Positions 3,989 through 10,498 of a stretch of 13,323 bases of DNA are shown here, piece after piece. A program made the position numbers and the translations under genes. How positions within the stretch are numbered: position 1 is the stretch's first letter; each line of letters opens with the position of its first letter. The stretch is from a virus. Taxonomy: Duplodnaviria > Heunggongvirae > Uroviricota > Caudoviricetes. The notes beneath the pieces are model-generated. The model was not told the origin of the DNA and made no database searches. It saw only the letters and a program-made list of their open reading frames with translations. Where the stretch lies: the IMG/VR virus record IMGVR_UViG_2565956709_000005, positions 1 through 13,323 of that record; one strand, given 5' to 3'.

Positions 3989-4177
3989 TTATCCAGCCGG
4001 TATTTCGTTATTCAGGTTCAGCGATACTTTTTTTAACGGGAGGCATTCACCGGGGATTTTTTGTTCGTCCCTTACCTGAATGCAGGATGACTTACTGTCA
4101 TAAATTCCGGTAATCACATTTTGTGGCTCACCCGTTATAAGAAAAACGGTCATCACCAGTGCAAATGCTGAAGTCAC
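3989..4177 (-). CDS. Small protein with N-terminal hydrophobic segment (predicted single transmembrane helix or signal anchor), 62 aa, unknown function
   Basis: ORF in track. N-terminus MTSAFALVMTVFLITG is hydrophobic. Start overlaps the stop of the upstream ORF in an ATGA arrangement (4174-4177). Lies in a visibly AT-rich segment. Confidence 0.5.
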   Translation of the reverse strand: MTSAFALVMTVFLITGEPQNVITGIYDSKSSCIQVRDEQKIPGECLPLKKVSLNLNNEIPAG

Positions 4178-4362
4178 TGCTGTTCTCCGATAATACCAAG
4201 TTCAAGAAGGGCAATTCTGGAAAGTATGGAATTATCATTGAGAAGATAAGGTTCATATTTTCTCATCTTAATGGCATCTTCCGTAAACTCCCGGTTACTG
4301 AGCAGAACACCAATATCAAAACAACCTTCAGACGTATTAACGTTTGGTAATAACGTTTCCAT
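4174..4362 (-). CDS. Small hypothetical protein, 62 aa from ATG 4362 (ORF track gives a 97-aa version from 4467)
   Basis: The internal ATG at 4362 is preceded by GAGGA with a 7-nt spacer; I saw no comparable ribosome-binding site at 4467. Translationally coupled to the downstream 62-aa membrane protein ORF. Confidence 0.45.
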   Translation of the reverse strand: METLLPNVNTSEGCFDIGVLLSNREFTEDAIKMRKYEPYLLNDNSILSRIALLELGIIGEQQ

Positions 4363-4927
4363 TATCGCGTCCTCAACAATGAATTTTGTGATGCGGTGCC
4401 TGGTGCCTCCAGGTGACGTTAACCAGTTAACAATTAACGCCGGATACAGAGAATCCACCCATAACACTGTTTTTGGTTTTAACTGTTCCGCGTGCGCTCA
4501 GCCGCATTCACCACATCACAAAATTCACTTTAAAAAGGGCGGCAGAGCAGTCACGGAGTAAAACTGATACCGCCAAACGTCACCAGAAAATTGATAACAG
4601 AGGGCGTTGCAGCGGAGTTGTCACTTAAGCGTATGGTCAACCTGACAACCCGGTGTCCTCAACGGAGGAAGGAATAACCCCGCCATACTTACCGCCGCGC
4701 CATTTCGCGGAGTGCCACAACCGGAAGCGCACGGTCGAACTAAATTTAACGACACCGTACAGAGAGACCAATTTCGCCGTGCGCTTTCGCTTTATGCCCT
4801 GACTTTTCAGGGACATATCCTTTCAGTAAACTGTCAGTGCCGGATGTTCACCCGTGTCCGGCGCACGCACTCCACCTGACCCGTGGAGAACTCCTTAATT
4901 ACCAACCTTAGCTTCGTTGGTTAGCTA

Positions 4928-5146
4928 TTAACGCGGGTATGTAACCATTCTGGCAATGCTTAATGCCGCTGCTTTTTCCAGCCTGGTGATATCCTGCTCC
5001 AGAGCGGACAGATTTTCAGCCTGCTTAGTCCTGGCTTCATTGGCCCATTTCAGATCCTGCGCTGCATTAATTTTCTGGCGCATCCACTCATAAAGTTCAT
5101 CATCGGTATAGTCTGGCGCGATGATGACGGGTTCTCGTTTCTGCAT
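4928..5146 (-). CDS. Small early-left protein, 72 aa, predicted helical; unknown function (positional analogue of kil/cIII-type small early genes)
   Basis: ORF in track; same strand and operon as neighbours. No recognisable motif. Confidence 0.5.
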   Translation of the reverse strand: MQKREPVIIAPDYTDDELYEWMRQKINAAQDLKWANEARTKQAENLSALEQDITRLEKAAALSIARMVTYPR

Positions 5147-10166: not shown

Positions 10167-10221
10167 GACTGCGGGTGCTTGAGGCTATCTGTCTCAGGCA
10201 TGAACACCAAAAGGCAGATAG

Positions 10222-10295
10222 AGAAAAGCCCCAGTTAACATTACGCGTCCTGCAAGACGCTTAACATTAATCTGAGGCCATATCTATGCTCTACA
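10222..10295 (-). ncRNA. sok: Predicted Sok-like antisense RNA covering the mok ribosome-binding site and start codon
   Basis: Inferred from hok-locus architecture. Minus-strand terminator-like structure (hairpin GCGUC...GACGC nested in a GGCCUCAG/CUGGGGCU stem, then UUUUCUCU) ends near 10222. Weak candidate promoter on the minus strand (-35 TTGCCT 10329..10324, -10 TAACCT 10306..10301). Boundaries approximate. Confidence 0.35.
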
Positions 10296-10498
10296 CACGT
10301 AGGTTAGCCTCTTACGTGCCGAAAGGCAAGGAGAAGCAGGCTATGAAGCAGCAAAAGGCGATGCTAATCGCCCTGATCGTCATCTGTTTAACCGTCATAG
10401 TGACGGCACTGGTAACGAGGAAAGACCTCTGCGAGGTACGAATCCGAACCGGCCAGACGGAGGTCGCTGTCTTCACAGCTTACGAACCTGAGGAGTAA
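10286..10498 (+). CDS. mok: Mok-like reading frame (in-frame N-terminal extension of Hok), 70 aa
   Basis: ORF in track. Starts 19 codons upstream of hok in the same frame, an arrangement I recall for MokC/HokC. GAGG lies 8 nt upstream of ATG 10286. Confidence 0.6.
   Translation: MLYTRRLASYVPKGKEKQAMKQQKAMLIALIVICLTVIVTALVTRKDLCEVRIRTGQTEVAVFTAYEPEE
10343..10498 (+). CDS. hok: Hok/Gef-family type I toxin (small membrane-depolarising peptide), 51 aa, HokD/RelF-like
   Basis: Sequence MKQQKAMLIALIVICLTVIVTALVTRKDLCEVRIRTGQTEVAVFTAYEPEE has the Hok/Gef signature (N-terminal transmembrane helix, ...LVTRKDLCEV.IRTG..EVA.F.AYE...). AAGGAG lies 10 nt upstream. Confidence 0.88.
   Translation: MKQQKAMLIALIVICLTVIVTALVTRKDLCEVRIRTGQTEVAVFTAYEPEE

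Follow-up and report, generated by a model that had tools for sequence, protein, structure and literature searches.

The ydfC–dicB interval of a Qin-like prophage

The window, by which we mean the whole 13,323-nt stretch of viral DNA analysed here, carries an operon that reads leftward on the minus strand and comprises an integrase gene (1-1131), an excisionase gene, a gene for an 823-aa exonuclease, two 62-aa genes, a gap, small genes and a repressor gene. The gap is the ydfC–dicF–dicB intergenic stretch of a Qin-like lambdoid prophage beside ompW. In NZ_CP025847, which is 100% identical over the region, the prophage adjoins ompW, and the genes that bound the gap upstream and downstream are annotated respectively as 'protein YdfC' (72 aa; 4928-5146, minus strand, also in the ORF list) and 'cell division inhibition protein DicB' (62 aa, 189 nt; 4174-4362, minus strand). 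Because DicB in this identical record starts at the ATG at 4362, and not at an upstream GTG, the non-coding gap is 4363-4927, or 565 nt; GAGGA precedes this ATG. A preliminary description of the DNA had begun the gap at 4468, which makes it too short; that edge came from a 97-aa ORF with a GTG start (4174-4467), which is an artefactual extension of dicB. Its observations that the neighbouring minus-strand genes of the operon abut or overlap, and that 4468-4927 holds no ORF of 60 aa or more, were both confirmed, the latter on both strands; the longest ORFs there are of 59 aa (4637-4816, minus strand), 55, 51, 49 and 44 aa. The stretch had also been called GC-rich, a term that its composition does not justify (GC 0.513 versus 0.481 for the window, with 19% of all 460-nt stretches equal or higher). 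No tRNA or tmRNA was found in the window by ARAGORN, and RefSeq/PGAP annotates nothing between ydfC and dicB in NZ_CP025847 (4025208-4025772, equivalent to 4363-4927).

In a megablast search with 4350-5000, the region turned up in ~87% of the complete E. coli genomes (4736 of 5426), at a median of two places per genome, and it is often present in several copies; many of the matches are 100% identical and have flanks annotated as ydfC and dicB. The corresponding gap in K-12 is 567 nt long, and from ydfC to dicB the spacer in the window is 97% identical to that of K-12 Qin. Among 39 colinear sequences, the fraction of columns that vary is 40% in the ydfC-proximal spacer (4798-4927, minus strand), 33% in a hairpin, 14% in the domain upstream of DicF, 15% in the dicB leader and 8% in DicF, which is the least variable segment of the gap. 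Homology in many prophages begins only at ~4789 and runs downward from there (breakpoints q21, q43, q61, q116 and q139); the flanking spacer has been swapped for unrelated sequence in many of them, with the block at 4595-4725 kept.

The preliminary description had considered a decayed gene and had traced by hand a 59-codon ORF (4637-4816, minus strand). That the interval is a decayed or small protein gene, for example this ORF or a frameshifted sieB-like gene, might be argued from the presence of the ATG-initiated ORF itself and from some phage records, in which a 'hypothetical protein' is annotated over this DNA. The idea is refuted by conservation among 38 distinct colinear homologs. The ORF is intact in only one of them and is not a gene; its start codon is ATT in 36 of the 38, roughly half of the homologs carry a frameshift, and codon 15 is a stop in most. 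K-12 likewise has ATT in place of ATG and a 1-nt indel within the frame, and its current annotation, which is rich in small proteins, gives no CDS here. Moreover, the ORF overlaps the covarying RNA helices described below, and the covariation in this DNA is of the RNA type, G-U pairs included. A conserved protein gene aligning across the interval was sought and none was found. We regard a coding origin as scarcely credible.

The inverted repeats that stand out in the gap have 16-nt arms at 4719-4734/4777-4792, 7-nt arms at 4617-4623/4643-4649 and the sequence GTATGG/CCATAC at 4631-4636/4683-4688. Two other dyads, which had been noticed previously, do exist, with a one-base shift from the positions first given (GCCGGA/TCCGGC at 4839-4844/4857-4862 and ACCAAC/GTTGGT at 4901-4906/4916-4921). 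They are two of 18 inverted pairs of at least 6 nt in the 565 nt, which is about the number expected by chance, they sit in the least conserved segment, and they are not the functional elements.

The interval contains dicF

An Rfam scan of the whole window at gathering thresholds identified DicF (RF00039) at 4588-4537 on the minus strand, with 76.7 bits against a threshold of 48 (E 7.5e-16). The match covers the full model, positions 1-52 of 52, contains no non-canonical pairs and satisfies the consensus structure completely. The gene for the 53-nt sRNA (4537-4589, minus strand) is identical to K-12 dicF (b1574) at 53 of 53 positions and lies on the operon strand between ydfC and dicB, as judged from the annotated flanks in the identical RefSeq records and from K-12, where the order is ydfC, 340 nt, dicF, 174 nt, dicB. 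Its parts are a single-stranded seed (4575-4589), a terminator hairpin (4538-4574) and a U-run (4532-4536), and its minimum free energy fold has the same 5' single-stranded seed and the same 3' hairpin as the Rfam structure, followed by UUUUU. A simple terminator scan missed this hairpin, whose loop is above the size limit of the scan, and we used the Rfam structure and the fold in its place. A promoter scan of the minus strand returned nothing sigma-70-like within the gap, in line with published work that concluded against an internal promoter. When Rfam was scanned below threshold, the gap gave only DicF, an STnc100-like match and a meaningless match to tsr32.

The interval is therefore the DicF locus, which is already known. 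Of the options raised in the preliminary description, the small RNA was right, DicF lying inside the interval and being identical to K-12 dicF; the terminator half of a terminator or antitermination region was right too, as the 3' hairpin and U-run of DicF form an intrinsic terminator inside the operon; the decayed gene was wrong. We conclude, with a probability of roughly 0.93, that the interval is the untranslated middle of the dicBF operon and encodes the Hfq-dependent DicF together with RNA elements that release it. This analysis itself established the identity of DicF, the synteny, the hairpin, the terminator, the lack of a gene and, for the domain upstream, a conserved fold. What is carried over from K-12, the locus of which is 97% identical, is the dependence on RNase III and RNase E, along with transcript sizes and targets; these should be transferable because the sRNA is the same.

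The interval looks empty through an annotation omission, since dicF scores far above the Rfam threshold and is annotated in K-12, but is absent from the identical RefSeq record. The value of identifying the locus is thus one of tidying up, the standard annotation of this genome having left DicF out. Both DicF and dicBF have been described previously (Faubladier et al., 1990; Balasubramanian et al., 2016, PMC5069750; Ragunathan et al., 2023, PMC10448788). DicF acts on cell division, on metabolism and, in EHEC, on virulence.

A scan of genome contigs gave seven loci only, three of them in metagenome-assembled genomes of unrelated taxa. Exact matches to the DicF core are found on short contigs of assemblies labelled Pyrinomonadaceae, Veillonella parvula and Collinsella (L005, L007 and L008), and L007 and L008 match the gap of the window at 94-97%. 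These look like E. coli prophage contigs that have been mis-binned.

Release of DicF from the operon transcript

In K-12, the DicA-repressed promoter dicBp gives rise to a polycistronic transcript from which DicF derives, a result that confirms Faubladier et al. (1990). In Northern and primer-extension data, a 1146-nt transcript covers ydfABC-dicF and a 1608-nt one reads through to ydfD, there is no internal promoter, and two shorter species are seen, one of 190 nt that needs RNase III and accumulates stably and one of 53 nt that needs RNase E (PMC10448788). A supplementary figure of the same paper shows the 190-nt RNA to be the same sequence stretch as that considered here. The transcriptome-wide RNase III paper contains no coordinates for DicF.

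By analogy, transcription in the window would start at a DicA-repressed promoter upstream of ydfA and proceed leftward through ydfA, ydfB and ydfC into the spacer. The operon genes detectable at 260 loci all lie on the strand of the RNA elements. Within the spacer we found a long imperfect hairpin of ~22 bp (4719-4797, minus strand), which we infer to be the substrate of RNase III. It contains the strongest inverted repeat of the gap, I1, the 16-nt arms of which (4719-4734/4777-4792) are 88% complementary. The base of the hairpin pairs a CCAUAAC-like sequence with GGUUGUGG, the core pairs AAGCGCACGG with CCGUGCGCUU, and CGA/UCG and a variable apex follow; the hairpin was kept in 10 of 10 distinct versions that were folded, again with a variable apex, and its base is weaker in the window (GCAUAA) than in K-12 (CCAUAAC). 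Counting back from the 3' end of DicF, the 5' end of the 190-nt species should fall at 4722-4726, within the 3' arm of the hairpin. A hairpin with 16-nt arms thus sits where the length of the 190-nt species predicts, which supports its assignment as an RNase III substrate.

Cleavage of this hairpin by RNase III would yield a 190-nt species made up of a folded domain of ~125 nt (4595-4725) and DicF. RNase E would cut the AU-rich single strand AUCAAU/UUUCUGG, at ~4589/4590, to give the 53-nt DicF; the exact cleavage positions in the window are predicted ones. Two partners are available to the GGUUGUGG strand, namely the base of the RNase III hairpin and, in helix P0 of the folded domain, GCUGCAAC. 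Because it has these two alternative partners, cleavage by RNase III would free it to close P0. The DicF seed can itself pair with the upstream UGUUAUCA, and the RNase E site is then in a loop.

The 3' end of DicF would be set by its own hairpin and U-run. This hairpin would act as a leaky intrinsic terminator, with only some of the transcripts reaching dicB, ydfD, the exonuclease gene, xis and int. The 5' single-stranded seed of mature DicF would base-pair with host mRNAs, that of ftsZ among them, and cell division would thereby be blocked.

The dicB leader and other RNA matches in the window

The spacer between dicF and dicB forms the dicB leader (4363-4536, minus strand). It is overlapped by a match to STnc100 (RF02076) at 4330-4539 on the minus strand, which covers model positions 1-206 of 206 with 38.7 bits (E 2.8e-7). 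As this is below the gathering threshold of 47, we treat the match as a resemblance and not as membership of the family. STnc100/PasD is a recognised prophage sRNA family (RF02076; bioRxiv 10.64898/2026.05.13.724894). The motifs GGUGAAU and CACC-GGAGGCACC-GGCACC are common to the leader and the STnc100 model, and the match extends 33 nt into dicB. The dicB leader recurs in Rac-SA53, P7 and D6. We found no support for a separate sRNA made from the dicB leader; from its sequence, the leader may be a distant relative of STnc100.

Elsewhere in the window, the sok antitoxin RNA (RF01794) is matched at full length at 10173-10348 on the plus strand, with 117.1 bits against a threshold of 59, and a toxin-antitoxin locus of the hok/sok type is thereby implied for this rightward part of the prophage. 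The match is overlapped by a 70-aa ORF with an ATG start (10286-10498, plus strand).

A covarying, pseudoknotted domain upstream of DicF

Between the RNase III hairpin and DicF lies the domain of ~125 nt (4595-4725, minus strand) that forms the 5' part of the 190-nt 'long DicF'. Its covariance model, R1, has a single match in the window, of 155.5 bits. RNAalifold, given 74 distinct versions, predicted a closing helix, P0 (4714-4721/4606-4613), and helices H1 (4706-4710/4695-4699), P2 (4691-4694/4651-4654), H2 (4678-4682/4663-4667) and H3 (4643-4650/4616-4623), all on the minus strand; a pseudoknot between GUAUGG and CCAUAC (4683-4688/4631-4636, minus strand) was added to this prediction. A second scan of viral contigs, aimed at classes other than those of Qin, gave 56 further distinct versions. 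Pairs were counted in 45 distinct sequences realigned with the covariance model.

In this alignment, which was fitted to the model, but in which the columns of H3 and the pseudoknot are ungapped and bracketed by invariant sequence, 95.7% of the cells were paired, as compared with 30-50% when the partners were slid and 88.6% in shuffles. Changes on both sides were observed in 18 of 34 pairs, with at most 7 in the slide control and 9.3 ± 1.5 in shuffles (none of 500 shuffles reached 18), and the covariation score was 0.265, with at most 0.063 in the slide control and 0.135 in shuffles; the shuffle control overstates significance for related sequences, a weakness from which the slide control is free, as it keeps the relatedness. 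The changes are readily seen in individual helices. H3 occurs as UUGUCA/UGACAA, UUGCCA/UGGCAA, UAACCA/UGGUUA, CUACCA/UGGUAG, UCACCA/UGGUGA and UUACCA/UGGUAA, all of them complementary, and H2 has at least six stem sequences, with unrelated loops. Because G-U pairs are frequent, the fold can be assigned to the transcribed, minus strand.

A P7-class copy (L145, 4656-4813, minus strand) has an insertion of ~25 nt, including a run of 11 G, in the loop of H2. Its helices are otherwise kept, and the apex of H2 therefore tolerates large insertions.

We considered whether the upstream ~125 nt might be functionless and owe its conservation to recent descent from one prophage lineage. Most Qin-like copies are 94-100% identical, so that plain conservation says little, and the shuffle control is anticonservative for such related sequences. 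Nevertheless, many double-sided changes in H3 and H2 have left the helices of the diverged classes intact, the paired fraction collapses in the slide control, and the domain block has been kept where the flanking spacer was replaced in many prophages. Simple descent is, in our view, most unlikely to be the explanation. We conclude that the domain is a five-helix RNA, modelled with a pseudoknot, that shows strong covariation, and that its structure is under selection.

No Rfam family matched the domain at E up to 5, and neither Rfam 15 nor the literature that could be searched, which did not extend to the text of the 1990 DicF paper or the P1 genome paper, describes it as a structured RNA. To that extent the folded domain is undescribed and new, and it is the sole part of the locus that merits follow-up.

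The domain in phages with and without DicF

A sensitive blastn search with the gap showed that the block at ~4598-4721 occurs by itself in phage genomes. Identity to the window is 88% in Ayreon, cdtI, 2H10 and Stx2c phages and 76-81% in P1, P7, SJ46 and RCS47; P1-like plasmids carry the block too. A search with RF00039 (E up to 0.1) detected no DicF beside the domain in P1, Ayreon or Stx2c phages. In Ayreon-type phages the domain follows cI in the leftward operon. In P1 it lies ~45 nt downstream of the C1-controlled promoter Pban, beside a 'dicF-like region' and before the tRNA genes and ban.

The copy in the P1/P7 ban leader is at 2486-2617 of L130 (AF234172) and is also found in P7 (L137) and RCS47 (L138); E. 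albertii plasmids (L141 and L142) carry the folded domain in the same way. The P1 terminator that follows the domain is GCCCA(UCUUCGG)UGGGC with a U-run, beyond which ~450 nt precede tRNA-Asn and tRNA-Thr.

Of 116 distinct sequences downstream of the domain, at least 105 contain an intrinsic terminator, which starts at a median of 28 nt after the anchor in the H3 loop, and the terminators are unrelated between classes. Most of the misses are failures of detection, but the absence seems to be genuine at two loci, L193 and L214. The linker from domain to terminator, which in the window is the DicF seed, is class-specific, and on this basis the copies fall into a DicF class, a DicF variant, a pPE4 type, an Ayreon type without the DicF seed and a P1 class.

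L193 (5069-5203) and L214 (5000-5129) carry the most divergent copies, with P0 and H3 fully re-coded and seemingly no terminator nearby. GGCAAGAGCACUACACCGGA follows the domain in both, and in L214 it can pair just upstream of the domain to form an extended closing helix.

A record named 'Actinobacillus phage vB_Apl-pPE4' (PP818812.1; L136, 584-860) has an E. coli-type DicA, the folded domain and a Kil arrangement. The 3' strand of P0, the linker and the 5' arm of the terminator (CCGCCACAACAACCCAUGUUGAUUACCUUUUGGCGGGUAUCC...) are repeated there in tandem, right after the first terminator.

In Ayreon (L131, 40-228, minus strand) and the Stx2c phage (L132, 38-226, minus strand), an Rfam match to C4 antisense RNA (~80 bits) lies beside one to isrK (~60 bits). 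This pair is in the immunity region, ~2.3 kb upstream of the domain.

What the domain might do

The biogenesis of DicF has so far been described as two nuclease cuts, which leaves 137 nt of the abundant 190-nt species with no assigned role. This segment is a selected, pseudoknotted fold that also occurs in phages without DicF. We propose, at slightly less than even odds, that the domain represents an undescribed class of structured phage RNA with an active role, either in setting read-through of the terminator or as a scaffold for prophage sRNAs with interchangeable seeds, DicF among them. As modelled, the class would be a four-way junction (P0, H1, P2-H2 and H3) locked by a loop-loop pseudoknot. 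It would extend over Qin-like prophages, Ayreon-, cdtI- and Stx2c-type lambdoid phages and the P1/P7 ban leader, and would nearly always stand before a terminator. The regularities of terminator, linker, pairing and strand fit both a scaffold for sRNA biogenesis or stability and a cis-acting read-through element.

In the first of these roles, the domain would be the common folded 5' scaffold of a prophage sRNA family, each member having a class-specific seed and a 3' terminator, and would control stability or release by RNase E; DicF would be one member. The stability of the 190-nt species in K-12 is consistent with such a role, as is the conservation of the domain while linker and seed differ by class. 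The pairing of the DicF seed with UGUUAUCA, which places the RNase E site in a loop, and the competition of P0 and the base of the RNase III hairpin for one strand, point the same way. However, nothing in our data supports sRNA action by the versions other than DicF, the linker of the Ayreon type is only ~8 nt long, and a scaffold would be compatible with a cis-acting function as well. We regard the scaffold as possible, though doubtful.

The domain might instead be a cis-acting transcription element, that is, a put-like read-through RNA or an attenuator or riboswitch-like sensor that sets passage into dicB and the recombination genes. A conserved structured domain directly upstream of an intrinsic terminator is the arrangement expected of riboswitches and attenuators, and terminators unrelated between classes follow the domain in at least 105 of the 116 downstream sequences. 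The position in P1, shortly after Pban and before the terminator, tRNA genes and ban, and that after cI in the leftward operon of Ayreon-type phages, would suit such an element. In addition, an N-like antiterminator gene is not evident in the operon of the window, terminated and read-through transcripts both exist in K-12, and the structure is under selection. Against this, the model does not match HK022 putL, which has two stem-loops rather than five helices and a pseudoknot; the domain is ~800 nt from the promoter in Qin-like prophages; and the divergent copies in L193 and L214 seemingly have no terminator nearby. Alternative pairing with the 5' arm of the terminator is weak, being restricted to 4 bp (CGCC/GGCG) in the DicF class, with nothing consistent in the other classes, so that a classical antiterminator switch is not evident. 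A cis-acting role of this kind is, on balance, unlikely.

The selected fold offers a mutable target in studies of how read-through into dicB and the recombination genes, and the release of DicF, are controlled, and may matter more than the identification of the locus itself.

Comparison with known systems

The closest known system is the dicBF operon of K-12 Qin (RF00039). It has the identical 53-nt dicF, the same order ydfA-ydfB-ydfC-dicF-dicB-ydfD, the core of the RNase III hairpin and the terminator, with a spacer of 567 nt that is 97% identical to the 565 nt of the window. The two copies differ in the apex of the hairpin and in the ydfC-proximal spacer. K-12 Qin is truncated by IS2, whereas the window copy belongs to an apparently complete prophage beside ompW and is followed downstream by genes for an integrase, an excisionase and the 823-aa exonuclease.

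The put RNAs of HK022 are cis-acting processive antiterminator RNAs (PMC9378689). We located putL in the HK022 genome, at ~28240-28312, from the description in the cryo-EM paper, and searched the whole genome with model R1 with filters off. The model did not match at putL, and in the absence of similarity in sequence or structure we rejected the domain as a put homolog. The best match in HK022 (L133, 23131-23264, minus strand) lies in the leftward operon and scores 11.5 bits (E ~0.05 for the genome); it has neither P2 nor the conserved loops and is probably due to chance. The put RNAs consist of two stem-loops in ~70 nt, as compared with five helices and a pseudoknot in ~125 nt for the domain in the window. 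The likeness is one of position only, in that both are folded nascent RNAs in an early phage operon, upstream of terminators and with no evident N protein.

The ban leader of P1 (the 'dicF-like region', AF234172 68791-68892) differs from the window in that it has no recognisable DicF, an unrelated linker and terminator, and a context of Pban, tRNA genes and ban in place of ydfC and dicB. It nevertheless has the same folded domain, which model R1 matches with 99 bits, and the same succession of this domain and an intrinsic terminator.
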